This document shows positions 3,341 through 38,500 of a DNA stretch of 43,870 nucleotides, piece after piece (position 1 is the first letter of the stretch; each line of letters opens with the position of its first letter). Made by a program: the position numbers and the translations under genes. This stretch comes from Escherichia phage AnnaReinhart_Bas75. Below the pieces are notes generated by a model. That model did no database searches and was not told the origin of the DNA. It worked only from the letters and a program-made list of their open reading frames with translations. The stretch lies in the sequence record PQ850596.1; one strand, written 5' to 3'.

Positions 3341-4417
3341 ATGCTATTAACTTTAGCGCCACAGGGTTTATCTATGAGCTTACTTACATCCCTAATCAGC
3401 CATCAGATATGGCTGCAACGCACCGCATCCGGTGAGGTGAAAGACCTCACGCCGTTCATTCAGGAGATAAGGGATGAAATCAAACGGCAGGTGCTGTTAT
3501 TCGGTGACGACGGTCGCAGCACTGCGCGACTGAATAAACTGTTACGCGACCTGGAAGAAGCACTAACCGGTATTACGGGTGACTGGCAAACAAAGCTAAC
3601 AGACGACCTTAAGGAACTGGCGGCGTACGAGGCTGAGTGGAACGTAAAGACACTGACCGCCAACGTAGACGCGGAATTTGTTACGCCTACCGCTGAGCAG
3701 GTATGGGCCGCTGCCGAGTTTCAACCATTATCATTGAGCGACAAGCCCGTTGATTTCACCAAGCTGATGTCTGGATGGGGCGAAACGGAAGTAGCACGTC
3801 TTGTAACTGGAGTTAAGATGGGCTTTGTGCAAGGTCAAACCACACGGCAGATTGTTAAGAATGTTGTTGGCGCTGGTGGACTAGCCGACATCTCAGAACG
3901 TAACGCGACTACGGTAATCCGCACCGCGCTGTCCCACGTATCCAACGAGGCCCGTAACGAGACGTACCGCCAGAACGACGACATCATCGAGAAGTACGAG
4001 TGGGTGTCAACGCTTGACAGCCGCACCAGTACGATTTGCAGGGTCAGAGACGGGATGACGTGGGAAATTGGTAAGGGGCCGATGCCCCCAGCCCATCCGA
4101 ACTGCCGGTCGTGCACGGCTCCGGTAATCAGTTCCGAGTTCGACTTCCTCGATAAAGGCGCAAAACGCGCGGCTAAAGGCGCGGAAGGTGGCACTCAGGT
4201 AAGCGCAGACACCACTTACTACGAGTTCCTTAAACAACAACCGGCGTGGTTTCAGGACCAGGCGCTCGGCCCGGTGCGAGGTAAGATTTTCCGTAACAGC
4301 GGTATATCGCCGGAAGAGTTTCGCGTAATATCTGTAGATGGTTTCGGGAATCCGCTCACGCTTAAGCAGATGGCGGAACTCGATAAACGTGTTGCTGATT
4401 ATCTGAAAGGGGAATAA
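3341..4417 (+). CDS. head morphogenesis / minor capsid protein (Mu gpF / SPP1 gp7-like)
   Basis: 358-aa ORF following portal, the conserved position of F-like head morphogenesis proteins; alternative start at ATG 3374. Family assignment from position and general sequence character only. Confidence 0.55.
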   Translation: MLLTLAPQGLSMSLLTSLISHQIWLQRTASGEVKDLTPFIQEIRDEIKRQVLLFGDDGRSTARLNKLLRDLEEALTGITGDWQTKLTDDLKELAAYEAEWNVKTLTANVDAEFVTPTAEQVWAAAEFQPLSLSDKPVDFTKLMSGWGETEVARLVTGVKMGFVQGQTTRQIVKNVVGAGGLADISERNATTVIRTALSHVSNEARNETYRQNDDIIEKYEWVSTLDSRTSTICRVRDGMTWEIGKGPMPPAHPNCRSCTAPVISSEFDFLDKGAKRAAKGAEGGTQVSADTTYYEFLKQQPAWFQDQALGPVRGKIFRNSGISPEEFRVISVDGFGNPLTLKQMAELDKRVADYLKGE

Positions 4418-4878
4418 TGATGGGCTTTTTCAAAGTAACTGACGTACCGTCTCGTCGCGTAGTCCAGTACGCCCGCGTGTCTGGCTCTGGCGAGAACGTG
4501 GTATTTATTGAGGACGAAAGTGTACTCGGTACACCGGTAGATGATATGCCGTTTGCAGATAAAACCGGTATTGCGTTGCCCGCCGCCGGTATGCTTTATG
4601 AAATTCCGTATCTGGCGGACGCTGGCGACGTGTATTTCTCTGTGCAACCAAAAGACGCTGAACTGGCCGACGGCAGCGCGACTATCACTGTCGAAGTTAA
4701 AGCAGGTGAAGCGCCGTATGCACTGACCTGGTACAAAGACGGTAAGGAAGTTGTCAACGCCCCGGAAGAGGCACTTTCCTTGACGGTTAACGCAGTGGGT
4801 GAATACTTCGTTAAAGTTACCGATGCTGATGGTGTAGAGGCTGTCAGTAAAGCTGCGAAGGTCACTAAGCCCGAATGA
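4417..4878 (+). CDS. Ig-like domain protein (possible capsid decoration protein)
   Basis: 153 aa; C-terminal segment TITVEVKAGEAPYALTWYKDGKEV...GEYFVKVTD resembles Ig-like (I-set/Big-type) domains; paralogous to 8190..8540. Confidence 0.5.
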   Translation: MMGFFKVTDVPSRRVVQYARVSGSGENVVFIEDESVLGTPVDDMPFADKTGIALPAAGMLYEIPYLADAGDVYFSVQPKDAELADGSATITVEVKAGEAPYALTWYKDGKEVVNAPEEALSLTVNAVGEYFVKVTDADGVEAVSKAAKVTKPE

Positions 4879-4881
4879 TAA

Positions 4882-4905
4882 AAGGCCCCATTAAGGGGCC
4901 TTAGT
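4882..4905. terminator. bidirectional rho-independent terminator AAGGCCCC-atta-GGGGCCTT
   Basis: 8-bp GC-rich stem flanked by A-run upstream and T-run downstream; lies between convergent genes 4417..4878 (+) and 4908..5111 (-). Confidence 0.7.
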
Positions 4906-4907
4906 TT

Positions 4908-5111
4908 TCAACGGAATCTTGTGTTTAAATCCTGCTCGTGGACGACCCTCAGAACAGTGTCATAATCCCCGTATCTTCCAGGTTCAAATATATCTAATGC
5001 CTTGTAAGCAGACATTGCGTCAGGGAAAACCTGCAGAACCTTTTTAACCCGGCACAAGTCACCGTCGAACTCTTCATCGAACTCTTGAACTACTTCGCAA
5101 ATTGCATACAT
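4908..5111 (-). CDS. hypothetical small acidic protein (67 aa), single-gene minus-strand insert
   Basis: ORF with AGGAGG RBS 8 nt before ATG, own early-type promoter (5139..5167) and shared terminator; opposite orientation to flanking structural genes. Confidence 0.6.
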   Translation of the reverse strand: MYAICEVVQEFDEEFDGDLCRVKKVLQVFPDAMSAYKALDIFEPGRYGDYDTVLRVVHEQDLNTRFR

Positions 5112-5138
5112 TTTTCACCTCCTGTTTAAGTTAACTGA

Positions 5139-5167
5139 ATAGTACCCTATTATATTGGGGTGTGCAA
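5139..5167 (-). promoter_or_regulatory. sigma70-like promoter TTGCAC-N17-TACTAT containing palindrome AATAG-N4-CTATT
   Basis: Read on minus strand: TTGCAC accccaatataataggg TACTAT, then AGGAGG RBS and ATG of 4908..5111. Near-identical to sites at 14262, 37025 and 38441. Confidence 0.6.
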
Positions 5168-5442
5168 ACTATTTATTTACGTATTCCAGTTATTCCACCG
5201 AATTGTAAATGTTGGAATAAACTATTCGAATAGTTGACTTTTCACTAAAAATATGATAAGCTCCACCTGAGCTTGTGAAATATGAACAAGCGACCGCGGC
5301 GCGGGCAGGTAACGGAGCGGGACGTAAGTCCTGAGTGTAGTTACGCTGACGCGTTCGGAAGGGCCATACTCTATTGCTTGTGTAAAAAGTAACAGGTTTA
5401 CTGAGATTACGCCGTTTCTATGTTTAAATGATAAGGACTAGC

Positions 5443-5468
5443 GCCCTGCTTTAAGGCAGGGCTTTACT
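5443..5468 (+). terminator. hairpin GCCCTGC-N-GCAGGGC followed by TTTACTT
   Basis: 7-bp stem with T-rich 3' flank, immediately upstream of the Rz RBS. Confidence 0.4.
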
Positions 5469-12483: not shown

Positions 12484-12714
12484 TCACTCATCAATATTAC
12501 TTCGATACTCCCGTAACTTCTCCAGACTTTCAATTGCTTCTGCTAAGTCGGTTCCGGTGTCCTTATGCCCGCGAAGACCCATGCACAATAACTTCTTCAA
12601 TGCGTGCTGTAGTGCGGGGTCACGGATGTCGAAGGCACGGAGAACATCGTAAACGTCTACGGTCATAGTGCTGCCGTGAGTGTTTGTCATTGTTCGGTTG
12701 TATTTTGAAGTCAT
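12484..12714 (-). CDS. hypothetical protein (76 aa), last gene of minus-strand insert
   Basis: Start overlaps stop of phosphoesterase gene; no recognisable motif. Confidence 0.5.
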   Translation of the reverse strand: MTSKYNRTMTNTHGSTMTVDVYDVLRAFDIRDPALQHALKKLLCMGLRGHKDTGTDLAEAIESLEKLREYRSNIDE

Positions 12715-13841
12715 CCCAGCATCTCCGGTGAAATAGTTAAACGTGCGACCTCGCCATATTCGGCGCTATAAGTAATTACATTTGCACTACGGCCTGACAT
12801 CCACCCGCCGCGGGAGGCATAGGCGTCTTTAGCCGCTAAGGTGCGGTGTTGCTCAACAATCATGTTACGGCTTTCTACAATCTTCTGGTGGTGCAGGTGG
12901 CCTACGTGGGCGTAGCTATAGACACTCTCACCGAACGCTTTGCGGAATTTGGCAATCATAACCGGTTCGATAGCATCGAATCGCGCCTTATGCCCGTGGT
13001 GAAAGAACAACGTCGTTTTTCCGTGTTGCACCATCTTGTAAACATCCGGCGACGTATCGACAATCACTCGGCTGTCGTTCGAATATAAAACTGTGAACAT
13101 TTCAGCCAGCCATACAGAGCCTACAGGGTCATGGTTCCCCTGTACGATAAGCAAGCGAACATTTTTATGTTTAACCAGTGCCATATCTACAACACGGCGT
13201 ACCATACGAATCATGTAGCGGACGAGTTTCTGGTAGCGAGTGTCTGCGTCCAACACGTGACGCGACTCAGGTGTAACGGCATCCAGACTATCGAAGTGCG
13301 CGAAATCACCCAGCAGGTTAATAACTCCTGTTCCTGCATCCGGTGCTTTCTGAAACGCCGCGTCGAACCAACGAGAGAACAGGTCTTCCGCAATCTTTAT
13401 ATCCCAGTCGTCGCCGCTCTCGTCGGCCCAGGCAAGCATACCGAGATGGAAATCAGATACCGTGTAAAGATTGAGTAGCTTGTCGTCGCGTTTGGCTCGA
13501 GTCGCTTTAGCCGGCGCAACTGGCGTAATCTCTGACTTCATGCCTTCAATCACGGCTTTCATCAACTCGACCTGACGTTCAGCGTCGGTGTCTGTCTTAA
13601 CCCATTGCAACTTAGTATTGCCGAACTCGTCTACCAGAGACGACGTCCCTTTAATCTTGTAGCCGTCTGGGACAAGGTGGCTAACGTCACGCCCGTGGCC
13701 TACACCTTTCTTAGCCAGCTTCGCTTTACGGATACGAATAACTCGGTCTGAGATGCCGTATTTACGGGCGATGTCTACATTCTTCATCCCGGCGTTCAAT
13801 TCTTCCTGTAACTGTTCGTCGGTTATTTTCTTCTGGGCCAT
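12711..13841 (-). CDS. HTH domain fused to calcineurin-like metallophosphoesterase
   Basis: 376 aa; N-terminal HTH-like segment (KNVDIARKYGISDRVIRIRKAKL); C-terminal phosphoesterase motifs in order: SDFHLG (D-x-H), GDFAHFD (GD-x-x-D), GNHD, then His-rich HHGH and GHLHH. Confidence 0.7.
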   Translation of the reverse strand: MAQKKITDEQLQEELNAGMKNVDIARKYGISDRVIRIRKAKLAKKGVGHGRDVSHLVPDGYKIKGTSSLVDEFGNTKLQWVKTDTDAERQVELMKAVIEGMKSEITPVAPAKATRAKRDDKLLNLYTVSDFHLGMLAWADESGDDWDIKIAEDLFSRWFDAAFQKAPDAGTGVINLLGDFAHFDSLDAVTPESRHVLDADTRYQKLVRYMIRMVRRVVDMALVKHKNVRLLIVQGNHDPVGSVWLAEMFTVLYSNDSRVIVDTSPDVYKMVQHGKTTLFFHHGHKARFDAIEPVMIAKFRKAFGESVYSYAHVGHLHHQKIVESRNMIVEQHRTLAAKDAYASRGGWMSGRSANVITYSAEYGEVARLTISPEMLG

Positions 13842-14233: not shown

Positions 14234-14261
14234 AATTATTTCCTCAGTAAGTTACATGTGA

Positions 14262-14290
14262 ATAGTACCCTATTATATTGGGGTGTGCAA
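14262..14290 (-). promoter_or_regulatory. sigma70-like promoter TTGCAC-N17-TACTAT with AATAG-N4-CTATT palindrome
   Basis: Identical 29-bp core to 5139..5167; drives minus-strand cassette 14233..12484. Confidence 0.6.
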
Positions 14291-24861: not shown

Positions 24862-26282
24862 TTCTTACCTCGTCTCTTCATGTAATTAAGCAATTCTTCC
24901 TGCACCGATTTCTTCTCGTCCGTACGCGCAGCGACAACCTCGTCCAGTGTGTTTTTAGCAACGATATGATAGAGGAACACCGGGCGCTCGTGGCCTGCCT
25001 GTTTCTGGCGGACCGGGCCTATTCGTTCGACAACCTGCAAATAGTGCTCAAGGTTCCAGCCTTGCGAGATGAATGCCAGATGGTGTCCGCCGTCCTGTAA
25101 ATTCAAACCATGACCGGCTGATGCGGGATGCACGCATAAGATTTCTATTTCACCCCGGTTCCACGCCTCCATCTGCTTATTACCCTTCGCGCCTTTGGCA
25201 AACGCCTGTGCTTGCGGGAATCGCTTAAGGATGCGCTCCAGTTCGTGCTTGAACTGATAGGCCACCAGTAACGGTGCCCCCTGTAACTCCTCAACAATGG
25301 ACTCGAGCGCATCAAGTTTCGTGTCGTGCACTTTCTCCCATTCTTTGGTTGCTTCGCCGTCTTCGCCCGTCACATACACGGCACCGGAAGCAATCTGCAA
25401 GCACTTAGCCGTTTTAGCGGCAGCGTTGGCAGCCTGCACCTCCCCACTCTCCAGTTCCGCGATTAACTTTTTCTCCATGTCGTCGTACGCCTGACGCGCT
25501 TTCTTCGGCAGGTCTATTTCGACCGGTACGATAATCGGCGCTTCACAACCAAACCACTCGGCAGGGTCTATGGTCAGGCTGATGTCTTTCATCTTCTGAT
25601 GAATCTCATTATCCGCACCCGGTCGTGCATGATACTCGCGGGCCATAGCCGATTTACCTTTCTGTACCGAGTTAAACCAGCGGTCGGTGAATGCTGTGTA
25701 CGAAGAGCCGAGGCGCTCGCCAGCGTCGATAAACCAGTTCTGACCCCACAAGTCTTTGAGGCCGTTTGGTGACGGTGTGCCTGTCAGGTTGATGAAACGC
25801 TTAACCTTTCCGAACGCAACCTTGCTGAGCGCCTTTGCCCGCTTGCTACCACCCGAACGGCTGCGGAACGATTTAAGCTTCGTGCTTTCATCGGCAACGA
25901 TAACCGTAAAAGGCCAGTCGTCTTTGCCGTAGTAGTCAATTAGCCACTCGATAACTTCGTAGTTAGTGCACACCACGTTAGCATCTGACTCCAGCGCTGC
26001 GATGCGGCGCTTCTCCGAACCAGTTGCATCTACGACACGCAGACAAGGGAATTGCCATTTCTCTTGTTCAGCGGGCCACGTACCGGACGCAACACGTAAC
26101 GGGGCAAGGATTAACACGCGGTCCTCTTCCGTAAGCTGCCCGTTGCGGAACAGGCGGTTGAGCACCCACATAGTGGAGGAGGTTTTACCTCCCCCCATTC
26201 CGCACCAGATATTACAGCGCGGGTGTTGCAGCATGAACGAAGTCATTAGCTTCTGGTACTCACGCCTTTGAAACTTACTCAT
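24858..26282 (-). CDS. SNF2-family DNA helicase
   Basis: 474 aa; Walker A GMGGGKTSS, DEST (DExx) box, C-terminal helicase region (HPASAGHGLNLQDGGHHLAF). Confidence 0.75.
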   Translation of the reverse strand: MSKFQRREYQKLMTSFMLQHPRCNIWCGMGGGKTSSTMWVLNRLFRNGQLTEEDRVLILAPLRVASGTWPAEQEKWQFPCLRVVDATGSEKRRIAALESDANVVCTNYEVIEWLIDYYGKDDWPFTVIVADESTKLKSFRSRSGGSKRAKALSKVAFGKVKRFINLTGTPSPNGLKDLWGQNWFIDAGERLGSSYTAFTDRWFNSVQKGKSAMAREYHARPGADNEIHQKMKDISLTIDPAEWFGCEAPIIVPVEIDLPKKARQAYDDMEKKLIAELESGEVQAANAAAKTAKCLQIASGAVYVTGEDGEATKEWEKVHDTKLDALESIVEELQGAPLLVAYQFKHELERILKRFPQAQAFAKGAKGNKQMEAWNRGEIEILCVHPASAGHGLNLQDGGHHLAFISQGWNLEHYLQVVERIGPVRQKQAGHERPVFLYHIVAKNTLDEVVAARTDEKKSVQEELLNYMKRRGKK

Positions 26283-27072
26283 TTACTGCCCCCATGAACG
26301 CCTTTATAAATTCAGCGGCTACTTGCGGGACGATGGCATTGCCATAACCGCGCAATCGTCCCACTCTTGCGGATACCCCATGAGTTGCCTCGCAAAATCC
26401 GCCTGGTATGACTCTAGTTTCCTTATCTGCTCCATGGTTGGGTTTCCATGAATCCCATAAACATGAAGCCACATCTGGCGATAAAGAGTATCGTTCCTGA
26501 ATTTTCCGTCCTTTCTGTAAAATGTCTTGCTGAGATCCCCGTAATCCTTCCATCCTCGCGCCGTTGGTGTCGCCCATCCTCGCGCCAAAGATGATTCTTT
26601 TCCTTTCCTGTGGAGAGCCGACGCTGCAAGCTGGCAATACTGACGCCCCGCAGGCGTAGCCTTTGTCTTCCAGGTTAAGGAATACAAAATCGAGCCAGTG
26701 CTTCCCAATTGCTGCTGCAACCTGCTCTCCAAACAGCAATTCAGGCTTGCACTCTCTGATGAGCCTGAGAAATGCTGGGGCAAGGTGTCGATCGTCGTCA
26801 AATCCGAGAGACTTACCGGCAACGCTAAACGGCTGGCAAGGTGGTGATCCTGTCCAGAGTCGAGTGCTTTCTGGTATTCCTGCCAGCTGGAGTGCAAGGG
26901 GCCACCCTCCGATTCCGGCAAAGAAGTGACACTGTGTAAATCCTTCCAGGTCTGAAGGGGTGACTTCGGTGATTGATCGTTCATCGACATATCCGTAAGG
27001 AATTAGTTTATTGTTAATTAATTCACGCAGCCACGCGGCTGCGCCTTTATCCCATTCGTTGTAATAGTTCAT
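26275..27072 (-). CDS. DNA (cytosine-5)-methyltransferase
   Basis: 265 aa; motif I FAGIGG and motif IV PPCQPFSVAGK (catalytic Pro-Cys), plus FGEQV (ENV-like). Confidence 0.75.
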   Translation of the reverse strand: MNYYNEWDKGAAAWLRELINNKLIPYGYVDERSITEVTPSDLEGFTQCHFFAGIGGWPLALQLAGIPESTRLWTGSPPCQPFSVAGKSLGFDDDRHLAPAFLRLIRECKPELLFGEQVAAAIGKHWLDFVFLNLEDKGYACGASVLPACSVGSPQERKRIIFGARMGDTNGARMEGLRGSQQDILQKGRKIQERYSLSPDVASCLWDSWKPNHGADKETRVIPGGFCEATHGVSARVGRLRGYGNAIVPQVAAEFIKAFMGAVNE

Positions 27073-27260: not shown

Positions 27261-27579
27261 TTCTCAATTCCTTATATTGTTGGTGTATGTGCTTACTATA
27301 ATAGTCTGCTATTAGGGTGTCAATCTGTTTTATCGAACCAACGACAAAAACATTTGCACCACGTTTACGCATCCGCTCGTGCTCTCGTAACTGGTGCGGG
27401 TCTGGCTTCGTGTTTTCGTCTTTCTTAACCTCGACGAACCAGATGATGCCACCAGGGAGAATTACCAGCAGGTCGGGGGCGCCGGAGCGCCCCTCATAAG
27501 ACAGCTTACGAACGAGGCCACCAATGGCCTCGAATCGCTCTTTTGCGTATTTCTGCACGCGCCCCTCAGGCGTACTCAT
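27226..27579 (-). CDS. VRR-NUC domain nuclease
   Basis: 117 aa; PD-(D/E)xK-type core (GAPDLLVIL ... FVEVKK). Confidence 0.65.
   Translation of the reverse strand: MSTPEGRVQKYAKERFEAIGGLVRKLSYEGRSGAPDLLVILPGGIIWFVEVKKDENTKPDPHQLREHERMRKRGANVFVVGSIKQIDTLIADYYSKHIHQQYKELRNETRIRPQTST
27295..27323 (-). promoter_or_regulatory. sigma70 promoter TTGACA-N17-TATAGT with AATAG-N4-CTATT palindrome in spacer
   Basis: Minus strand reads TTGACA ccctaatagcagactat TATAGT; embedded in 3' coding region of VRR-NUC gene, upstream of 27069..27260. Confidence 0.55.
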
Positions 27580-27660: not shown

Positions 27661-27791
27661 TCATTCCAGCACCCACAGATAAATTGCGATGAACATGCCC
27701 AATATGGCAACCATCATGCCGTATTGACCCTCGTGACAGTAGACACCTGCGGCAAATCCCGCCAGTACCGCGATAATCAGTTTACTTAGCA
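27661..27791 (-). CDS. small membrane protein (43 aa; unlisted)
   Basis: ATG at 27791 overlapping polymerase stop; hydrophobic sequence LIIAVLAGFAAGV...MMVAILGMFIAIYLWVL. Confidence 0.35.
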
Positions 27792-29962
27792 TAGCGTTTT
27801 AACTCCTGACCTTCCGCTACAAGAGGGAACCCCTCCGCCCATTCTGGTAATTCGCACATCAATCGCTCAAGCTCTGCGACATTGTATTCCGGCGTATCTG
27901 GAGTTTCGCAGATAATCTCATCGTGGACATGAAGTACAATTGGATAACCGTTTGCTTCTACGTTCAGCAGCGCGTTGGCCAGCAAATCACGGCACAACGC
28001 CTGAGTGCAGTTTTCCACCAGTTTACCAGAGTAGGTGTACTGGAAGCCCCACTGCCGGGTTAACTGGTTTTCGCCCTGGTACTTGATGCGCACGTTAGTA
28101 GACACCTTTCCATCTTCGTCTGTCTCTTTCGACACACTTAATCCGACGCCCGGGTATGACATAACGCGACCCGACGGCAACGTCATGCGCAACCACCAGC
28201 CCGCGACTTTGTCGCCGTTGTTGTCTGTCTCTATGTTACGCGAAAACTTAACGCCTCGCGGTCCTGCGGTGAACTCTTTACCTGGATTGCGGATAGCGGC
28301 CATAGCTGCGTCTTCAATATCTCGCCAGAAAGCTACTGTTTCAGGGTGTGACTCTCGCCACATACGCTTGATAGCGTCACAGGTACGCCACACTTTCTTA
28401 TCAAGAATATACGATGGTCGGTCATCCTTCTCCCCGGGTCGCGGCGGTCGCTTGGCTTCCTGAATACGTGCCCATTCATAGCCGCGTGCAGTAGCCGCCC
28501 AGATGTGGTCCGGGAAAGTACCGTCCATTGTTTTTGACATATCAACAAGGTCAAGTCCGAGGTTCTTAGCAAACTGAACGAAAGCGCCAACACCACCAGC
28601 GTAGCCGAGGCCAAGCTCGCAGGCTTTACCAATCTGGCGCAAGTCTTTGCGTTCCTTCTTAATGTAATCCGGCTCCATGCCGAACATCTTACCCGCGGTT
28701 ACACAGTAAATGTCCAGCCCGGCGCGGAACGTATCTAGCGCGGTTTCTTCGCCTGCCAGCCACGCAAGCCCCCGACCTTCAACGTTAGAGTAATCGGCGA
28801 CGACAAACTTTTTTCCGGCTTCCGGGATAATGCAGCTACGCACCGTCGATGCCGTTAGCTTGGCTACGTCGAAACGGCGATGCGCACGACCCTTAAGTAG
28901 CGCTGAAATGCCCTTATCCAGTTCATCATCGTGATAGTACCCGCGCGCCAGGTTCTGTGGTTGGAAGCCTTTACCTGCGAACCGTAACGTACGCTTGGCC
29001 CCACCGTACTGGATGCAACCACGGCGGCGGTCGTCCGACGAGCGACCCAACAGCAGCGGGTTATATTTCGTTGACGCAGTGGACGCGGCCCCGAGGCGCA
29101 TTTCTATAATTGTGCGGGCGTCGTCGGGTAAATCCTCATCCGCCAGCAGGTCGTTAAGCGTTGACTTCTGTGCATTGTGTATGCGGTGCGCGGGCGCAAG
29201 TTCACGCAGAATCGGCAGGAAGTCTTTACCAGTAAGCGAGCCGCCGTATTTACGTTGAGCTTCTTCCTGTAACTGTGCCTTGTGCTTCTCTACGGCTTCA
29301 ATAGCGGCTTCCGCCAGTGCGACGTCAACCTTAAATCCGCGGTCGTTGATTAACTGGTCAAGCTCCAGTACACGGTCTTCGAACTCGGAGTTACCCCAAC
29401 GCGGCAGCTTATGGAAGACTTCACGCATCGCAGTGATGTCGCTCACGGCGTACCTGATGAACATCGCCCACTCGTCAGGGTGAGTTTCTGCGGTGTAGCG
29501 GCGGATTTTGTAGTTCTTCGGCGTCGGTTTAGAGAAACGCTTAATCAGAGCCTTGCCGCGTTTATCTTTCGCGTTGTCTGCAGACACGCCCAGCACTTCG
29601 CACAGCGCATCGAGTGACCCCGGCAGCGCGTGACGAAACGCCCAAATCATCGTATCAATGGCGTTGCTTACGGGAATATCAAAGCCCCAGCAGTGTTTCA
29701 TGATGAGCCTGTCGAACATTGAGCCGTTGTGCCACACCATCTTAATACGACTGTTCGGCTTAACCAGGCGGCGCAGTGCGCGGTGCAAATCACCCGGCAT
29801 GTCGCTTCCGTCGGTGCAATCCCATACCCGCACAGGCTCGTCGTCAAAAGCATATGTGCAGATAAGCACTTCGGTAGTCGGGTGTTCGGCGTAAGCGTAG
29901 GAGCCGACTTTCTTTAAATCGGCTTCGGAGAATGTTTCAAAGTCCAGGTATAAGTAGCTCAT
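27782..29962 (-). CDS. DNA polymerase, family A, with 3'-5' exonuclease domain
   Basis: 726 aa from ATG 29962 (AAGGA RBS); Exo I motif LDFETFS, motif B-like RQIGKACELGLGYAGG, motif C VLHVHDEI. Confidence 0.85.
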   Translation of the reverse strand: MSYLYLDFETFSEADLKKVGSYAYAEHPTTEVLICTYAFDDEPVRVWDCTDGSDMPGDLHRALRRLVKPNSRIKMVWHNGSMFDRLIMKHCWGFDIPVSNAIDTMIWAFRHALPGSLDALCEVLGVSADNAKDKRGKALIKRFSKPTPKNYKIRRYTAETHPDEWAMFIRYAVSDITAMREVFHKLPRWGNSEFEDRVLELDQLINDRGFKVDVALAEAAIEAVEKHKAQLQEEAQRKYGGSLTGKDFLPILRELAPAHRIHNAQKSTLNDLLADEDLPDDARTIIEMRLGAASTASTKYNPLLLGRSSDDRRRGCIQYGGAKRTLRFAGKGFQPQNLARGYYHDDELDKGISALLKGRAHRRFDVAKLTASTVRSCIIPEAGKKFVVADYSNVEGRGLAWLAGEETALDTFRAGLDIYCVTAGKMFGMEPDYIKKERKDLRQIGKACELGLGYAGGVGAFVQFAKNLGLDLVDMSKTMDGTFPDHIWAATARGYEWARIQEAKRPPRPGEKDDRPSYILDKKVWRTCDAIKRMWRESHPETVAFWRDIEDAAMAAIRNPGKEFTAGPRGVKFSRNIETDNNGDKVAGWWLRMTLPSGRVMSYPGVGLSVSKETDEDGKVSTNVRIKYQGENQLTRQWGFQYTYSGKLVENCTQALCRDLLANALLNVEANGYPIVLHVHDEIICETPDTPEYNVAELERLMCELPEWAEGFPLVAEGQELKRYAK

Positions 29963-30114
29963 TTCTTTTTCCTTAAATCCAGTGCCTTCGTTTCGCTGAG
30001 TCTTATTTTCATACAATCACGGCAAATCCACACATGCCTGTACCCGGCGCGGTACTCATCCGCGTACCACGGAAGCGGTTTCATATATCGGTATACGTGC
30101 TTACAGAAAAACAT
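29959..30114 (-). CDS. hypothetical small Cys-containing protein (51 aa; unlisted), possible zinc ribbon
   Basis: AAGGA RBS; stop overlaps polymerase ATG (ATGA); paired Cys (FFCKH ... WICRDCM). Confidence 0.35.
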   Translation of the reverse strand: MFFCKHVYRYMKPLPWYADEYRAGYRHVWICRDCMKIRLSETKALDLRKKK

Positions 30115-30134: not shown

Positions 30135-30154
30135 AAGGCCCAATGAAGGGCCTT
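30135..30154 (-). terminator. rho-independent terminator AAGGCCC-N-GGGCCTT with T-run on minus strand
   Basis: Directly downstream of stop of 30174..30800. Confidence 0.6.
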
Positions 30155-30173: not shown

Positions 30174-30800
30174 TTAGCGGCGGCGACGTTCGCGGCGCGG
30201 TGCTTCATCTTCTTCGTCGTCTTCCAGGTCATTGACGCTCGCAGCGACTTTAGAACCGCCGAACGCTTTGCCTTCGCCAACGTATTTAATCGCCAGCAGG
30301 TTAACGCCGAGGACTTTGTATTTCTGGCTGAACCAGATTTCAACGCTTACGTTAGCTAAGCATCCGCTGTAAACCTGTTCACCTTCAATCTGTTCGCCGT
30401 CTACGTTGAAGTCCTGCTCTACCTGAGTCTCACCTTTTTTAGAGGTTACAATCAGCGGCTGTTTCTGTGCCTTCGCTTTGAAGTAGAAGCCTTCCGGGAA
30501 GTCTTCAAACGGATTGTCGCGCTCGGCAATGTCTTTAATCGCGCATTTATCCATGTGCTTACCTTCACCGTAGTTGGACTTCATCCATTTCTCGGCAGCG
30601 GCTGCGCCTAACGCTTCTTCAACTACAGCGTAAACGGTGTCGTAGAGTGCATCGATTTGAGCATGGTCAGACGGCAGGATGATAGTCGCGCTGTACTGGC
30701 CTTTAGTGATTGAGCCATCATCGTTTTCACGGTCTTTTTCACGTTCAAATACGTTAACCCAAGCAGTGTTTACTTTACGCAGATTCAGTTTAATACCCAT
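30174..30800 (-). CDS. putative ssDNA-binding protein (function tentative)
   Basis: 208 aa; C-terminal acidic stretch DLEDDEEDEA then Arg-rich tail; own strong promoter and terminator suggest high expression. Confidence 0.4.
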   Translation of the reverse strand: MGIKLNLRKVNTAWVNVFEREKDRENDDGSITKGQYSATIILPSDHAQIDALYDTVYAVVEEALGAAAAEKWMKSNYGEGKHMDKCAIKDIAERDNPFEDFPEGFYFKAKAQKQPLIVTSKKGETQVEQDFNVDGEQIEGEQVYSGCLANVSVEIWFSQKYKVLGVNLLAIKYVGEGKAFGGSKVAASVNDLEDDEEDEAPRRERRRR

Positions 30801-30859
30801 CTTAATTTCTCGCTTTTAAGTTTCGTTTACTCCGGGAAGCTGCCCGGTCAGTGATTAGA

Positions 30860-30888
30860 ACTATAATAGCTAACTATTCAGGTGTCAA
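30860..30888 (-). promoter_or_regulatory. sigma70 promoter TTGACA-N17-TATAGT with AATAG-N4-CTATT palindrome
   Basis: Minus strand reads TTGACA cctgaatagttagctat TATAGT; upstream of 30174..30800. Confidence 0.6.
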
Positions 30889-31107
30889 ATAAAATTTCGC
30901 AATACGGACTATGTTCTCGAAATCATTCATATCAACGGGTTCGAATTCATCCTCCACATGGTTGTATCGCACCATCGTGCCGTTCAGGAACGTAAACGAT
31001 TCCGAATGGATATAACCGCCCCAGCGCCATATCATCACAAAATCTTTATCTGTGGGCATTTCATTTACTTGAATCATTCCAAATCCCCCTCTGTTACCTG
31101 ATTCCAC
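30874..31107 (-). CDS. hypothetical protein (77 aa)
   Basis: Start overlaps 3' end of nuclease gene. Confidence 0.45.
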   Translation of the reverse strand: MESGNRGGFGMIQVNEMPTDKDFVMIWRWGGYIHSESFTFLNGTMVRYNHVEDEFEPVDMNDFENIVRIAKFYLTPE

Positions 31108-32330
31108 TCAGGACGTTTGTCGTCTGCCGTTGCGACACATGGTGCGCCTGGCTTACGGGTAATGAAGTCTTTCAGTTCTTCTTCCGGTACAATTTTAACC
31201 GCTTCGGTCGGTGTCATAAGAACTACCTTTTGCAGCATAGTACCGTACTTCTCGAATACTGCGTCGGTATCTTTCCACGCACGATTACCGTGGCGACCTT
31301 CAACCAGTTTGTATCCTGGCACTTTCTTACCTGAATGCAAAGCAGCAGCCATCGCTTTCTCAACCTTGTCGATGTGCTGGCGCAACAACGGCAGCTTCTC
31401 ATACTCAGCGACGAGTTGCTCTGGCGTAAGTTCCAGCGCACAGTCGTCCTCAAGTTCTTCCGCCAGTACCGCGTTAACGGTTTTTGTACGAGCTGCGCAC
31501 TGTTCCGAGAAACGACACCACTGACAACCATCTACCGACGGCTTGAAGTCCGACGCTTTAAGGTTCTTCTTGCCACGGGAATAAGCATCAAGGGCTAACA
31601 GCGCTCGTTTCCGCGCGAACTTAGCGAACAGCTCCAGACCTTCAACCGAGATGTCCCATTCCGACGCGCCTCCAGCATACGGCTGGAAGATGACCAGACG
31701 AACCACGGTGATGTTATAGCGTCTCTTGAGTCGGCGATAAACACCGAGAGCGTAAAGCATAAGCTGCTTGTTTTCTTTCGCTTCGACACGATGTCGCCCG
31801 GTTTTCAGGTCACCGATAATGAGCATGTGCCCGTCGGTGTTAGCCAGTTCCTGCACGGCTACAAGGTCGGCGGTTCCGAACGTCTCAACGCCTTCGTAAC
31901 CCGGATGCAGCACCTCAGTAAGATTTACGCGCATCTCCAGCTTAGCGTAAGTCGCCACGTCAATAATCGCTTTGCAGTAGTCGGTGTACTTGCGTACCTG
32001 CTCAATCATGTCAGCCGTAATAAGTACCGCACCTTTCATCGGACTGATTAGCGCCTTAATCTGACCTTTACCCTCATCCAGCACGTAAGCGCCGACTTCT
32101 CGTTCTAACGGCAAAGCAGTTCCTTTGATGTACTGATTCAGGTGAATCTCAGATATCGTGTGCATAGCCGTGCCTGATATGGCGGCTTTACCTGACGTGT
32201 TAGGAATGTCTTTTTCACATGCCAGCGATGCACTGCACGCCAACCATTTCTTAGCACCAGACGGCGACAGTAAGGCGTGTACATCGTTATTTCCGCCGCG
32301 TTCCTTTAAAACCATGCTCTGCTCTCCCAC
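31074..32330 (-). CDS. PD-(D/E)XK exonuclease with C-terminal Cys cluster (Cas4-like)
   Basis: 418 aa; N-terminal LSPSGAKKWLAC motif; C-terminal Cys cluster DGCQWCRFSEQC. Confidence 0.55.
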   Translation of the reverse strand: MGEQSMVLKERGGNNDVHALLSPSGAKKWLACSASLACEKDIPNTSGKAAISGTAMHTISEIHLNQYIKGTALPLEREVGAYVLDEGKGQIKALISPMKGAVLITADMIEQVRKYTDYCKAIIDVATYAKLEMRVNLTEVLHPGYEGVETFGTADLVAVQELANTDGHMLIIGDLKTGRHRVEAKENKQLMLYALGVYRRLKRRYNITVVRLVIFQPYAGGASEWDISVEGLELFAKFARKRALLALDAYSRGKKNLKASDFKPSVDGCQWCRFSEQCAARTKTVNAVLAEELEDDCALELTPEQLVAEYEKLPLLRQHIDKVEKAMAAALHSGKKVPGYKLVEGRHGNRAWKDTDAVFEKYGTMLQKVVLMTPTEAVKIVPEEELKDFITRKPGAPCVATADDKRPEWNQVTEGDLE

Positions 32331-32627: not shown

Positions 32628-33128
32628 TTATTCTTCTTCGAAATACTTGTTCTTGATTGCTGTCAAGCGTTCCAGGTATTCAGCCAGGTCTTCGTCTTTA
32701 ATCGCTGCAATCTTCATTTTCTTACCTGTGAACTCTTCCAGCAGTTCATCAGAATCATCGCACGCGGCATCGCTCGGACCTTCGTTAATTGCATCGTCGA
32801 TAGCCTGAATCTGGTCGCGCAGAGACTTATAGTCTACTTCTTCTTTCTCTTCTTCCGGCTCTGGCGTCGTTTCCTCTACTTTAGCTTTACGCGGCTTGCG
32901 TTTTGGCTTCTCTTCTTCTGCCGGTTTAGTGTCAACGATGTCTTCACCTTCTACCGGGATTTCTTTTGTTGCTTCTTCAGCGCACTCAGCTACCGCTTCT
33001 TTGGTGTACGATACCGTCTCTACTTCCAGCGGCGTGGCAACCTGAACAACTTGTTTCGCACTGTTCGCGGCAATCAGTTCGTGCGCAACTACGAAACGTT
33101 CCAGTAATACTAAGAATTTCTCTAACAT
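32628..33128 (-). CDS. hypothetical highly acidic protein (166 aa)
   Basis: Glu/Asp-rich with a central Lys/Arg patch; good RBS GGAGAATAAATAATG. Confidence 0.5.
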   Translation of the reverse strand: MLEKFLVLLERFVVAHELIAANSAKQVVQVATPLEVETVSYTKEAVAECAEEATKEIPVEGEDIVDTKPAEEEKPKRKPRKAKVEETTPEPEEEKEEVDYKSLRDQIQAIDDAINEGPSDAACDDSDELLEEFTGKKMKIAAIKDEDLAEYLERLTAIKNKYFEEE

Positions 33129-33408: not shown

Positions 33409-33437
33409 ACTATAATAGCGAACTATTCACATGTCAA
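33409..33437 (-). promoter_or_regulatory. sigma70 promoter TTGACA-N17-TATAGT with AATAG-N4-CTATT palindrome
   Basis: Minus strand reads TTGACA tgtgaatagttcgctat TATAGT; followed by conserved AAACGAGAGG leader. Confidence 0.6.
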
Positions 33438-33457
33438 TGGGCTTTTCTAAAATAATT

Positions 33458-33471
33458 AATATGGTACTATT
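33458..33471 (+). promoter_or_regulatory. second palindromic box (AATAT-ggta-CTATT) in divergent control region before the XRE gene
   Basis: Imperfect copy of the AATAG-N4-CTATT box 44 bp from the first; overlaps TACTAT that may be the -10 of the plus-strand promoter. Confidence 0.4.
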
Positions 33472-33501
33472 CACATATCAACTGACTAAGGAGTAATTGA
33501 C

Positions 33502-33717
33502 ATGCAACCATCTGAACTAGGCATCCGTGTAGAACAACGCCGCAAAGAACTCGGCATCTCCCAGCGCCGTCTGGCGGTCCTGGCTGGCGTTTCCCAGGGC
33601 GCGATTAACCAGCTTGCGCTCGGGGTAACTCAGGACGTCCGGCCGGCGACGCTGTTCAAGCTGGCGGAAGTGCTACAAGTAGACGCCAAGTGGCTGGCGT
33701 TAGGTGAAGGGGCTTAA
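33502..33717 (+). CDS. XRE-family (Cro/CI-type) HTH transcriptional regulator
   Basis: 71 aa; classic HTH_3 signature LGISQRRLAVLAGVSQGAINQLALG; AAGGAG RBS; only plus-strand gene inside the minus-strand replication module. Confidence 0.8.
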   Translation: MQPSELGIRVEQRRKELGISQRRLAVLAGVSQGAINQLALGVTQDVRPATLFKLAEVLQVDAKWLALGEGA

Positions 33718-36136: not shown

Positions 36137-36427
36137 TTACCGTTTAGCCAACCCTTCCAGCAAATTTTTATACTCTTCAAAATATTCCTCGACCAAATCA
36201 TCGCCGAAATAGAAGTCGATATACTCGAGATTATCTCTTACGTTAAGCGATGCCGACATGGTGCTTAGTTGGCGTAAGCTAATTAGCTTCATTTCTGTTT
36301 CTACGCAGAAAGGCCGGTAGGTATCAAGATGGCAAGAGATATTGAAGCATAAAGCGAACTCTCCGGCCACGGAGTGAACCATATACACTTCGTTTTCTGC
36401 TTTATTGTGGAAAATTACGCCTTTCAT
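36137..36427 (-). CDS. hypothetical protein (96 aa)
   Basis: Start overlaps stop of upstream HTH gene; acidic C-terminus. Confidence 0.5.
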   Translation of the reverse strand: MKGVIFHNKAENEVYMVHSVAGEFALCFNISCHLDTYRPFCVETEMKLISLRQLSTMSASLNVRDNLEYIDFYFGDDLVEEYFEEYKNLLEGLAKR

Positions 36428-36606
36428 TTCACGTTCTCCTTAATCCATGCTTCGACTTTATTACGGTCAAATGTTCCCGGTAAACGGCGGCCCATAACCT
36501 TAATACAGCAGTCAGGGAATTTGCCGCTGCGCAACCAGTTATTAATCGTCTGACGTGTCACCCCGATACGTTCAGCTACTTCATTCTGCGTCATATAATG
36601 CGACAT
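36424..36606 (-). CDS. AlpA/excisionase-type HTH DNA-binding protein
   Basis: 60 aa from ATG 36606 (CAGGAGATATAAAAATG); motif TQNEVAERIGVTRQTINNWLRSGKFP. ORF-track version extends to 36720 but lacks RBS. Confidence 0.6.
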   Translation of the reverse strand: MSHYMTQNEVAERIGVTRQTINNWLRSGKFPDCCIKVMGRRLPGTFDRNKVEAWIKENVK

Positions 36607-37024: not shown

Positions 37025-37053
37025 TTGCACACCCCAATATAATAGGATACTAT
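37025..37053 (+). promoter_or_regulatory. sigma70-like promoter TTGCAC-N17-TACTAT with AATAG-N4-CTATT palindrome
   Basis: Near-identical to 5139 and 14262 copies; followed by CGAAACGAGA leader, AGAGGAG RBS and ATG 37088. Confidence 0.6.
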
Positions 37054-37087
37054 TCACTTATCGAAACGAGACAGAGGAGTGGTGGTT

Positions 37088-38440: not shown

Positions 38441-38469
38441 TTGCACACTAAGATAGAATAGGCTACTAT
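38441..38469 (+). promoter_or_regulatory. sigma70-like promoter TTGCAC-N17-TACTAT with AATAG-N4-CTATT palindrome
   Basis: TTGCAC actaagatagaataggc TACTAT; followed by ACAAACGAGAGGAG leader and ATG 38501. Confidence 0.6.
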
Positions 38470-38500
38470 TCATTTACACAAACGAGAGGAGAGACGGAAG

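Follow-up and report, generated by a model that had tools for sequence, protein, structure and literature searches.

[quoted passage not shown] The tail of gp2.5 is purely acidic and ends with an essential C-terminal Phe; more generally, the tails of the T7 and E. coli ssDNA-binding proteins (SSBs) are acidic with a hydrophobic tip and dock into basic pockets of the polymerase and the helicase. As for nucleases, the four-Cys enzymes of the RecB/AddB/AdnA type, such as those in AddAB and AdnAB, are end-resection enzymes.

Several closer systems have been described by experiment or by gene context. The Gp2.5-like proteins have been classed as a family of annealing proteins (PMC8093625, PMC2896510). 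Those of T7 and phi12 drive oligonucleotide recombination in vivo (PMC2896510), and a DUF2815 protein of Pseudomonas putida gives weak oligonucleotide recombination (PMC5743808); where annealing of the DUF2815 type was assayed, the activity was weak, at about 1e-6 or only 2- to 20-fold above background (PMC5743808, PMC2896510). For ORF6 of phage Enc34 the SSB function is proven by experiment, and the DNA-stacking aromatic residue has been defined as Trp150 in Enc34 and Tyr158 in T7 (PMC5686142). The corresponding gene context carries the published name "duf2800-gp2.5-polA module" and is typically without another ssb gene (PMC8093625). Moreover, Bas14_0045 (B14T) is a DUF2800 nuclease which triggers the retron type IX Sen3; its D-x-K residues are required for the biological effect, its predicted structure resembles AdnA/RecB, and it is dispensable, for truncation escapers are viable (bioRxiv 10.64898/2026.07.14.737667).

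The window analysed here, a stretch of 43,870 nucleotides, is as a whole a complete Kagunavirus-like coliphage genome, with about 94% identity to vB_Ec_DUEC01 and to the BASEL phage Bas76. An earlier note on this DNA had taken two of its genes, both of which were found on the minus strand, as an exonuclease/annealing recombination pair, and this matches the published reading of the gene context (Lopes 2010, PMC2896510; PMC8093625). In fact the pair is the standard set of Kagunavirus coliphages, namely a four-Cys nuclease of the RecB/AddB type and an ssDNA-binding protein of the T7 gp2.5/Enc34 type, and it belongs to a larger conserved nuclease-SSB-PolA module. The best explanation of the whole, to which we assign a probability of roughly 0.8, is that the two genes belong, as nuclease and SSB, to the conserved DUF2800/gp2.5-like SSB/PolA replication-recombination module in Kagunavirus (Guernseyvirinae). 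Nothing is new in the identification itself: both families, their pairing and the link with PolA were published before, and near-identical phages are annotated alike, the labels in close relatives being "exonuclease" and "ssDNA binding and annealing protein", so the discovery value is small. The use of the case is rather that a reading from sequence only can recover a replication/recombination module.

The nuclease and its gene

The nuclease gene was previously delimited as 31074..32330. The frame is right, while the start at GTG 32330 fits less well than ATG 32315, which is probably the true one and gives a gene at 31074..32315 (minus strand) with a product of 413 aa. This start is preferred because a GGGAG Shine-Dalgarno sequence lies about 9 nt upstream of the ATG, with GTG 32330 falling inside it, and because, of the 120 homologues listed, nearly all are 413-414 aa long. 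The codon adaptation of the gene is average by E. coli usage (CAI 0.351); it sits in the upstream transcription unit, and the SSB gene has a promoter of its own.

The product matches the full length of PF10926 (DUF2800) on profile positions 1-368 of 368 (228.8 bits against a cut-off of 21, E 1.5e-67), the model spanning residues 13-402, and it matches phrog_69 at 2.6e-120. It also matches PF12705 (PDDEXK_1) at 32.8 bits, above the cut-off of 22 (E 9e-8), as do seven of eight diverse DUF2800 homologues; NCBIfam gave no match for either the nuclease or the SSB. The nuclease domain, residues 16-273 (31497..32270, minus strand), contains H52, E127 and the catalytic motifs GTAD150, GD169-L-K171 (D-x-K) and Q184-x3-Y188, together with a four-Cys iron-staple arrangement of C27 upstream of the core and C264-x2-C267-x5-C273 downstream. 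In an alignment of the eight diverse homologues, the catalytic motifs and the Cys set are kept in seven, at 25-53% identity and in the most distant at 25-33%, with D150, D169, K171, Q184 and Y188 invariant; this bears out the N-terminal nuclease motif noticed before. These features of the sequence support the 413-aa protein as a PD-(D/E)XK nuclease of the AddB/RecB/Cas4-like kind, in which the iron staple probably holds a 4Fe-4S cluster. The Cys cluster, which had been described as C-terminal, exists but is not at the C-terminus, since about 140 conserved residues come after the nuclease domain. They include a conserved C-terminal domain at about residues 290-413 (31077..31448, minus strand), which is seen in the same alignment, lies inside the DUF2800 model and closes with DKRP...D-L-E.

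Structural comparison of the nuclease gave little. The AlphaFold2 model has a pLDDT of 37.6 and a pTM of 0.36, its alignment holding only homologues of 93-99% identity, and is unusable. A profile of the eight diverse DUF2800 proteins searched against the PDB sequences gave only non-significant matches, AdnA 6ppu (E = 1.1) and 7sjr (E = 1.7), where the 6ppu alignment covers the DLKxG...QLxxY segment. With hhalign the D...DxK segment was aligned with the E. coli RecB nuclease domain at a probability of 0.2%, which has no value as evidence.

The ssDNA-binding protein and its expression

The SSB gene lies at 30174..30800 on the minus strand, from ATG at 30800 to TAA at 30174-30176, exactly as delimited before. 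The SSB-like character suggested for its 208-aa product is supported by PF10991 (DUF2815; score 59.5 bits, cut-off 26, with residues 5-198 covering profile positions 3-173 of 176) and by phrog_112 (4e-41), whose PHROG label is 'ssDNA annealing protein'. The family profile matches the PDB entries 4jg2 (2e-39), 4klk (1e-34) and 5odj (1e-32), and the predicted model has the gp2.5-type OB fold with a long helix. As for the stacking aromatic, the Trp of the Enc34-like SPN19 protein (RPW/SQEN) falls opposite W156-F157 in the alignment, although the register is uncertain beside an adjacent 2-residue gap. Leu148, after 'SGC', was considered as the sign of a lost aromatic, and this was rejected, for Enc34 Trp150 aligns with W156/F157 and the aromatic is retained. 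The basic cleft residue Lys46 of Enc34, common to the three solved DUF2815 proteins, is absent: in the alignment its position is Ser44 in the 208-aa protein and Ser/Pro in other Guernseyvirinae. Since a pharokka-type annotation of Bas76 lists no second SSB or recombinase, the 208-aa protein is most likely the only SSB of the phage, and therefore first of all a component of the replisome.

The tail of this protein, residues 186-208 (30177..30245, minus strand), merits separate attention. The acidic stretch followed by an Arg-rich end, DLEDDEEDEA and then PRRERRRR, is present as had been noticed, and homologues down to about 50% identity retain it; the tail is predicted to be disordered, with pLDDT below 50 at residues 196-208 of the model. 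The acidic block is there, but the tail ends in PRRERRRR and lacks the hydrophobic or aromatic tip that PF10991 tails usually have, and therefore the contacts of the SSB with its partners may differ from those in T7. Such tails are rare in the family: among 132 PF10991 representatives, 89 tails are purely acidic (in 88 of them a hydrophobic residue is among the last three), while 19 are of mixed charge and 11 net-positive at the end. The acidic block with a conserved x-P-R-R and an Arg/Lys-rich end is found once in Guernseyvirinae and 3-4 times in Dhillonvirus, Eiauvirus and Scappvirus. The acidic-then-Arg tail may mark a functionally distinct sub-type of gp2.5-like SSBs, a reading whose chance we put well below even. 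If it does, self-association of the zwitterionic tail could build cooperative filaments or condensates along ssDNA, or the tail could bind a partner of acidic character, such as the DUF2800 nuclease through its acidic C-terminal tip or a very acidic 166-aa early protein; moreover, the same proteins could be the targets sensed by defences of the Retron-Eco8 type and the retron-IX type in this phage group.

The expression signals around the gene were largely recognised in the earlier note. The consensus promoter TTGACA-17-TATAGT at 30860..30888 (minus strand, read from 30888 to 30860) matches the consensus at 11 of 12 positions, and the window contains the exact pattern 3 times, where 0.04 occurrences would be expected. 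Bas76, K1G and SETP3 all keep this promoter, which the RefSeq record of SETP3 annotates as such. Upstream of the replication operon, at 33409..33437 on the minus strand, another TTGACA-17-TATAGT promoter is near-identical to it, including the spacer palindrome AATAGnnnnCTATT. In the leader of the SSB mRNA, a small hairpin (CCGGG-loop-CCCGG; 30832..30847, minus strand) is conserved in four phages, with the stem kept and the loop variable; its folding energy is no better than that of shuffles (z = -0.36), and despite the conservation a gp32-like translational operator is not claimed. Past the gene, the intrinsic terminator proposed at 30135..30154 (minus strand) stands as a hairpin (-13 kcal/mol, z = -2.55), which SETP3 retains with a changed stem sequence, but a simple terminator scanner made no call. 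No promoter-like site was found between the hairpin and 29962, so that the downstream DNA polymerase gene lacks a promoter to itself; the terminator is therefore probably leaky. Rfam searched over the whole window at gathering thresholds gave no match. The high expression suggested for the SSB gene receives independent support from its E. coli CAI of 0.605, the top of all ORFs in the window, compared with 0.597 for the major head protein.

Gene context and the weighing of alternatives

Between the two genes lies a 67-aa ORF of phrog_6314 (30874..31077, minus strand), whose ATG shares nucleotides with the stop codon of the nuclease gene (ATGA). This slot holds unrelated ORFs in SETP3, in Dhillonvirus and in a Bacteroides phage, and no ORF in K1G; as a conserved third subunit the 67-aa ORF was accordingly rejected. 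On the other side, a 51-aa ORF (29959-30114, minus strand) overlaps with its stop codon the ATG (ATGA) of the family A DNA polymerase gene (27782..29962, minus strand), which is the third conserved member of the module and has Pfam matches to the 3'-5' exonuclease and polymerase domains only. The same operon encodes an SNF2 helicase and a resolvase-like nuclease, the latter with a weak VRR_NUC match and called 'Holliday junction resolvase' in Bas76. The order of DUF2800, DUF2815 and PolA is shared by Dhillonvirus, Eiauvirus, Scappvirus and Chivirus, as well as by Streptococcus, Bacteroides and Xylella phages.

A mechanism can be proposed as follows. The SSB, with an OB fold of the T7-gp2.5/Enc34-ORF6 type and a disordered charged tail, would be abundant owing to a strong promoter for its gene alone, to host-optimal codons and to a partial terminator, by which transcription into the polymerase gene would be lowered. 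It would coat ssDNA at the replication fork and, by analogy with T7 gp2.5 and the phi12 Gp2.5-like protein, may also promote the annealing of complementary strands. The nuclease most likely resects DNA ends in the 5'->3' direction, yielding ssDNA for the SSB to coat and anneal, and the two activities coupled in this way would serve recombination-dependent replication, concatemer formation and break repair.

The pair could instead consist of functionally independent neighbours, with the SSB for the replisome only and the nuclease for another task, such as the removal of Okazaki primers or flaps, the degradation of host DNA for nucleotides, or the processing of ends in packaging or replication. 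The polymerase without a 5'-3' exonuclease domain would leave room for such a task, and the two genes differ in expression, the nuclease having average codon adaptation and an upstream transcription unit and the SSB its own promoter; the variable, unrelated small ORF between them and the dispensability of the nuclease in Bas14 point in the same direction. We nevertheless regard this independence as unlikely. The gene order is conserved across phyla, and therefore a shared pathway is favoured; four-Cys nucleases of the RecB/AddB/AdnA type are generally known to resect ends; and the resolvase-like nuclease and the SNF2 helicase in the same operon fit a recombination pathway.

At the opposite extreme, the two genes would form a dedicated recombinase like lambda Red, in which the 208-aa annealing protein is the obligate partner of the exonuclease and replication relies on the host SSB. 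Nuclease and gp2.5-like genes do adjoin in many phages, and the Gp2.5-like family is counted among the annealing proteins, as in the PHROG label; but the predicted fold is an SSB-type OB fold, and Enc34 ORF6, the nearest characterised relative, is a proven SSB. The SSB gene is linked to PolA as tightly as to the nuclease and has codon adaptation at the capsid level, while recombineering of the DUF2815 type is 100-1000 times weaker than that by Red-beta. Neither protein matches lambda Exo/YqaJ, RecT, Red-beta, Erf or Rad52 in Pfam or PHROG, and since the nuclease is dispensable in Bas14, the DUF2800 nuclease is not an essential partner of the SSB. Such a dedicated recombinase thus seems quite improbable. 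Hardly credible at all is a true Cas4 that interferes with host CRISPR spacer acquisition or feeds it. The nuclease does have a Cas4-like layout of one N-terminal Cys and Cx2Cx5C around the PD-(D/E)XK core, and some GenBank labels of homologues read 'Cas4 or RecB-like nuclease'; yet the Cas4 model PF01930 has no match even at E<=1 in the eight diverse DUF2800 homologues, there is the extra 140-aa C-terminal domain, the constant neighbours are replication genes, and the closely related Bas76 is annotated without cas genes. So of the Cas4/AddB-like exonuclease in the earlier note, the AddB/RecB-like part is upheld by PF12705, the motifs and the four cysteines, and strict membership in Cas4 is rejected.

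Retron and other abortive-infection defences are now known to be triggered by Gp2.5-like SSBs and DUF2800 nucleases, and Kagunaviruses are small, tractable model phages in BASEL. The unusual Arg-rich tail and the dedicated strong promoter of the SSB are therefore experimental handles for studying how much SSB is made, how it recognises its partners and how immunity senses it.

Comparison with known systems

With lambda Red the locus shares the logic of Exo/Beta, in which the gene of a 5'-3' resection nuclease lies beside that of an ssDNA-annealing protein, the activities here being proposed ones; there is no homology, and the annealing component would be an OB-fold SSB that serves replication too, not a Rad52-like ring. 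To T7 gp2.5 (1je5) the SSB has no detectable sequence similarity in the PDB searches. Even with the solved proteins of its own family, Enc34 ORF6/PF10991 (5odj/5odk/5odl, 4klk, 4jg2), its identity is only 17-21%; Lys46 there corresponds to Ser44 here, and PF10991 tails are acidic with an aromatic or hydrophobic residue near the end, whereas this one is the Arg-rich PRRERRRR.

The nuclease shares D...D-x-K and QxxxY with the nuclease domains of AddB, AdnA, RecB and Cas4, and has, like the 4Fe-4S iron-staple domains of AddB, AdnA and Cas4, one upstream Cys and Cx2Cx5C. It differs from these in standing alone without helicase domains and in the extra conserved 140-aa C-terminal domain, and at the level of sequence its likeness to AdnA and RecB falls short of statistical significance. 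Bas14_0045 is of the same Pfam family with the catalytic D-x-K in common, and between the Dhillonvirus nucleases and the one in the window the identity is about 46%. The closest likeness in arrangement is to the duf2800-gp2.5-polA module, the 'RecE-like + Gp2.5-like' context of phi12 (Lopes 2010; PMC8093625): the gene order is identical and the families are the same. Nothing substantial sets the window apart; it has, between the nuclease and SSB genes, an unrelated 67-aa ORF as well as the dedicated promoter.

[quoted passage not shown] HMM searches confirmed the suspected SSB or gp2.5 affinity, with 59.5 bits (cut-off 26) over the whole domain of Pfam PF10991, which is named 'Enterobacter phage Enc34 ssDNA-binding protein' and was formerly DUF2815, and 4e-41 for PHROG 112, 'Gp2.5-like ssDNA binding protein and ssDNA annealing protein'. 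Against solved structures the sequence alone matched weakly (4jg2, 2.7e-4; Enc34 ORF6 5odj, 5.8e-3), and the profile of the protein with 36 relatives matched 4jg2, 4klk and 5odj at 2e-39 to 1e-32. The AlphaFold2 model is confident (pLDDT 84.5, pTM 0.76; alignment of 47 sequences) and shows a beta-barrel with a long helical insert at 49-76; beyond about residue 182 the tail is disordered. In the alignment, the DNA-stacking aromatic residue (Enc34 Trp150, T7 Tyr158) has its counterpart in W156/F157, and Enc34 Lys46 is not conserved, Ser44 standing in its position. With no more than 15 among 1.84 billion representatives scoring below 1e-10, this sub-family stands rather isolated. Phage K1G carries a 100% identical SSB (4838-5464 in its locus, L010) and a nuclease about 90% identical.

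The acidic stretch DLEDDEEDEA noticed before an Arg-rich tail is indeed found at the C-terminus, followed by PRRERRRR, and is almost invariant in relatives down to 50% identity; the SSBs of Dhillonvirus, Eiauvirus and Scappvirus carry three or four repeats of an acidic block, x-P-R and a Lys/Arg block. Among 132 full-length family representatives, however, purely acidic tails prevail (89, with a hydrophobic or aromatic residue within the last three in 88, the classical SSB/gp2.5 tip), while 19 tails are of mixed charge and 11 have net-positive ends, so that the acidic-then-Arg-rich tail is, judging from these sequences, a lineage-specific variant. Enc34 ORF6 binds ssDNA, and its acidic tail confers the preference for ssDNA over dsDNA (PMC5686142).

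For the nuclease, the minus-strand ORF proposed at 31074..32330 exists, but its start is better moved: GTG 32330 falls inside the GGGAG Shine-Dalgarno located about 9 nt upstream of ATG 32315, and nearly all homologues among those listed have 413-414 aa, so we place the gene at 31074-32315. The protein matches PF10926 (DUF2800) with 228.8 bits over the whole model, PF12705 (PDDEXK_1) with 32.8 bits (cut-off 22) and PHROG 69 'exonuclease' at 2.6e-120; together with PF10991 and PHROG 112, these matches support a pair of nuclease and probable ssDNA-binding/annealing protein. In an alignment with homologues from Dhillonvirus, Eiauvirus, Scappvirus, Chivirus, Streptococcus, Bacteroides and Xylella phages (25-53% identity), G48-T49, H52, E127, D150, D169, K171, Q184 and Y188 are invariant, which gives a PD-(D/E)XK core with a QxxxY motif and agrees with the nuclease motif first noticed. 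Of four cysteines conserved in 7 of 8 homologues, C27 lies upstream of this core and C264-x2-C267-x5-C273 downstream; in the AddB/AdnA/Cas4 iron-staple 4Fe-4S domains, too, one Cys precedes the core and a Cx2Cx5C set follows it. The nuclease domain ends with this cluster, whose description as C-terminal needs qualifying because about 140 conserved residues, ending DKRP...D-L/F-E, lie beyond it; likewise 'Cas4-like' holds for the arrangement of Cys residues and motifs but not for membership, as the Cas4 Pfam model gives no match even at E<=1. The linker between nuclease and C-terminal domains is variable, since some Jerseyvirus genes (SETP3, 3501-4928 in its locus, L009) are longer by about 60 codons and Dhillonvirus nucleases, about 46% identical to ours, have a Lys/Arg-rich insertion directly after the Cys cluster. 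Sequence profiles against AdnA and RecB aligned the catalytic segment with scores that are not significant, and the AlphaFold model, from an input alignment of near-identical homologues only, is of too low confidence (pLDDT 37.6) to show the fold. The DUF2800 nuclease of Bas14, a Dhillonvirus, is reported to have a predicted structure resembling AdnA/RecB, to need its D-x-K residues and to be one that the phage can do without (July 2026 preprint, bioRxiv 10.64898/2026.07.14.737667).

Expression signals

The consensus promoter claimed at 30860-30888 is borne out: TTGACA-17-TATAGT (30888..30860, minus) agrees at 11 of 12 consensus positions, and genome-wide there are three exact copies of the pattern where 0.04 would be expected. 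Bas76, K1G and SETP3 keep it while their sequences upstream diverge, and in the RefSeq record of SETP3 it carries a promoter annotation. The terminator assigned to 30135-30154 is also present after the SSB gene, as a hairpin and T run (30154..30135, minus; -13 kcal/mol, z = -2.55) not called by a simple terminator scanner; at the equivalent place SETP3 folds another stem sequence with a UUCG loop (-12.4 kcal/mol, z = -4.6), which means that conservation concerns the structure and not the sequence. Scapp also has an annotated terminator directly after its SSB gene. Moreover, the codon adaptation index (CAI), computed with Sharp-Li E. coli weights, is highest for the SSB gene among all window ORFs (0.605; major head protein 0.597, nuclease 0.351), which independently supports its supposed high expression. 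As no promoter-like site is found from this terminator to the polymerase start at 29962, the terminator is probably leaky, and this may be a device setting a high SSB-to-polymerase ratio. In the SSB mRNA leader, a hairpin CCGGG-loop-CCCGG (30832-30847, minus), with conserved stem and variable loop in Bas76, K1G and SETP3, precedes an A-rich unstructured stretch reaching the start codon; its folding energy is no better than that of shuffled sequence.

Promoter-like elements across this genome have in common that the palindrome AATAG-N4-CTATT is joined to their -10 box, with 7 exact copies against about 0.9 matches expected by chance even with one mismatch allowed. They are found on the minus strand at 27295-27323, 30860-30888 and 33409-33437, with a degenerate copy at 33452-33481 and further elements at 5138-5151, 14261-14274, 37041-37054 and 38457-38470. 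Class A elements have a consensus TTGACA -35 and drive minus-strand replication genes; class B elements have no -35, are followed by the long conserved box TATATTGGGGTGTGCAAG and lie mostly at borders of divergent transcription units. By its sequence the family resembles either a shared operator or a promoter class specific to the phage, and a small HTH protein (33502-33717 plus or 36424-36606 minus) may read it.

The module and its neighbours

In every lineage examined the gene order runs from the DUF2800 nuclease through the DUF2815 SSB to the family A polymerase, several lineages having a variable small ORF between the first two, with primase-helicase, resolvase-type endonuclease and SNF2 helicase close by in most enterobacterial lineages; the nuclease family occurs in 1,488 and the SSB family in 648 of 50,697 phage records. 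Lopes et al. (2010) reported that 'RecE-like' exonuclease genes cluster with a then-unknown family of remote Gp2.5 homologues, and showed oligonucleotide recombination in vivo for T7 and phi12 proteins (PMC2896510), and a 2021 survey names the 'duf2800-gp2.5-polA module', which it notes also for the majority of phages infecting Gram-negative bacteria, a separate ssb gene being absent (PMC8093625). In Bas76, too, the annotation has neither a further SSB nor a recombinase. A nucleotide search with 2.4 kb around the pair matched 430 phage records, led by vB_Ec_DUEC01 (94.2% over 100%) and Bas76 of the BASEL collection (93.6%; gene order agreeing with ours end to end), followed by numerous Kagunavirus and Jerseyvirus genomes; at 43,870 bp the window is as long as a complete Kagunavirus genome. 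In these records the nuclease is already labelled 'exonuclease', 'PD-(D/E)XK nuclease' or 'DUF2800', and the SSB 'ssDNA binding and annealing protein, Gp2.5-like' or 'DUF2815 family protein'. The observation is real and its first interpretation essentially right, and both are already known from the literature and the GenBank annotation of near-identical phages.

The small ORF between nuclease and SSB genes (30874-31077, minus) overlaps the nuclease stop codon with its ATG (ATGA); the ORFs in this slot in SETP3 (4925-5101) and two loci from other lineages (L002, 4903-5145; L007, 3867-4196) are unrelated to it and to one another, and K1G has none. Between SSB terminator and polymerase gene, a 51-aa ORF (29959-30114, minus) has no family match; it ends in an ATGA that also holds the polymerase start codon (29960-29962), which suggests that translation of the polymerase is coupled to this ORF. 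A C-5 cytosine DNA methyltransferase gene (26275-27072, minus; PF00145, 1.2e-21) shares the operon, with a resolvase-like gene on one side and the SNF2 helicase gene on the other. The promoter at 33437 has as its first gene of any size one (32628-33128, minus) for a strongly acidic protein of 166 aa (phrog_3127, no Pfam match), conserved in K1G and SETP3; its CAI of 0.527 ranks fourth in the genome, and it may be an early protein made in abundance, for example a DNA mimic. Another nuclease candidate, a 376-aa protein (12711-13841, minus) with weak calcineurin-like phosphoesterase matches, lies within the block of tail genes but on the opposite strand, and is a 'DNA repair exonuclease' in the Bas76 annotation; in Bacteroides phage BU2-2 the neighbour of the DUF2815 gene is likewise a Metallophos exonuclease.

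Role of the pair

Both genes belong to families of known immune triggers, the Kagunavirus members being so far candidates only. Retron-Eco8 senses Gp2.5-type SSBs, as shown for T7 and SECphi4, with escapers mapping to the SSB coding sequence or promoter, and mutations in SSBs of the Gp2.5 family likewise let phages evade Hachiman; SECphi18, in one closely related group with SECphi4, has a homologue 37% identical to our SSB. Retron type IX Sen3 is reported to be triggered by the Bas14 DUF2800 nuclease (bioRxiv 10.64898/2026.07.14.737667).

As to function, we infer a shared recombination role for the two proteins. They could also act independently, the nuclease for example removing primers or flaps, which the lack of a 5'-3' exonuclease domain in the polymerase would favour, though we consider this unlikely. 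A strict Red-like dedicated recombinase is still harder to accept, considering the SSB fold of the 208-aa protein, its capsid-level codon bias, the absence of a second SSB from the Bas76 annotation, and the weak recombineering of a Pseudomonas DUF2815 protein (PMC5743808). A true CRISPR-type Cas4 role is highly improbable for a nuclease outside the Cas4 model. We prefer, with a probability of roughly 0.8, a joint reading in which the 208-aa protein would serve the phage replisome as SSB and probably anneal ssDNA as well, and the nuclease would resect DNA ends and feed the SSB. The pair would then act like T7 gp2.5 with an exonuclease, rather than as a dedicated pair of the lambda-Red style.
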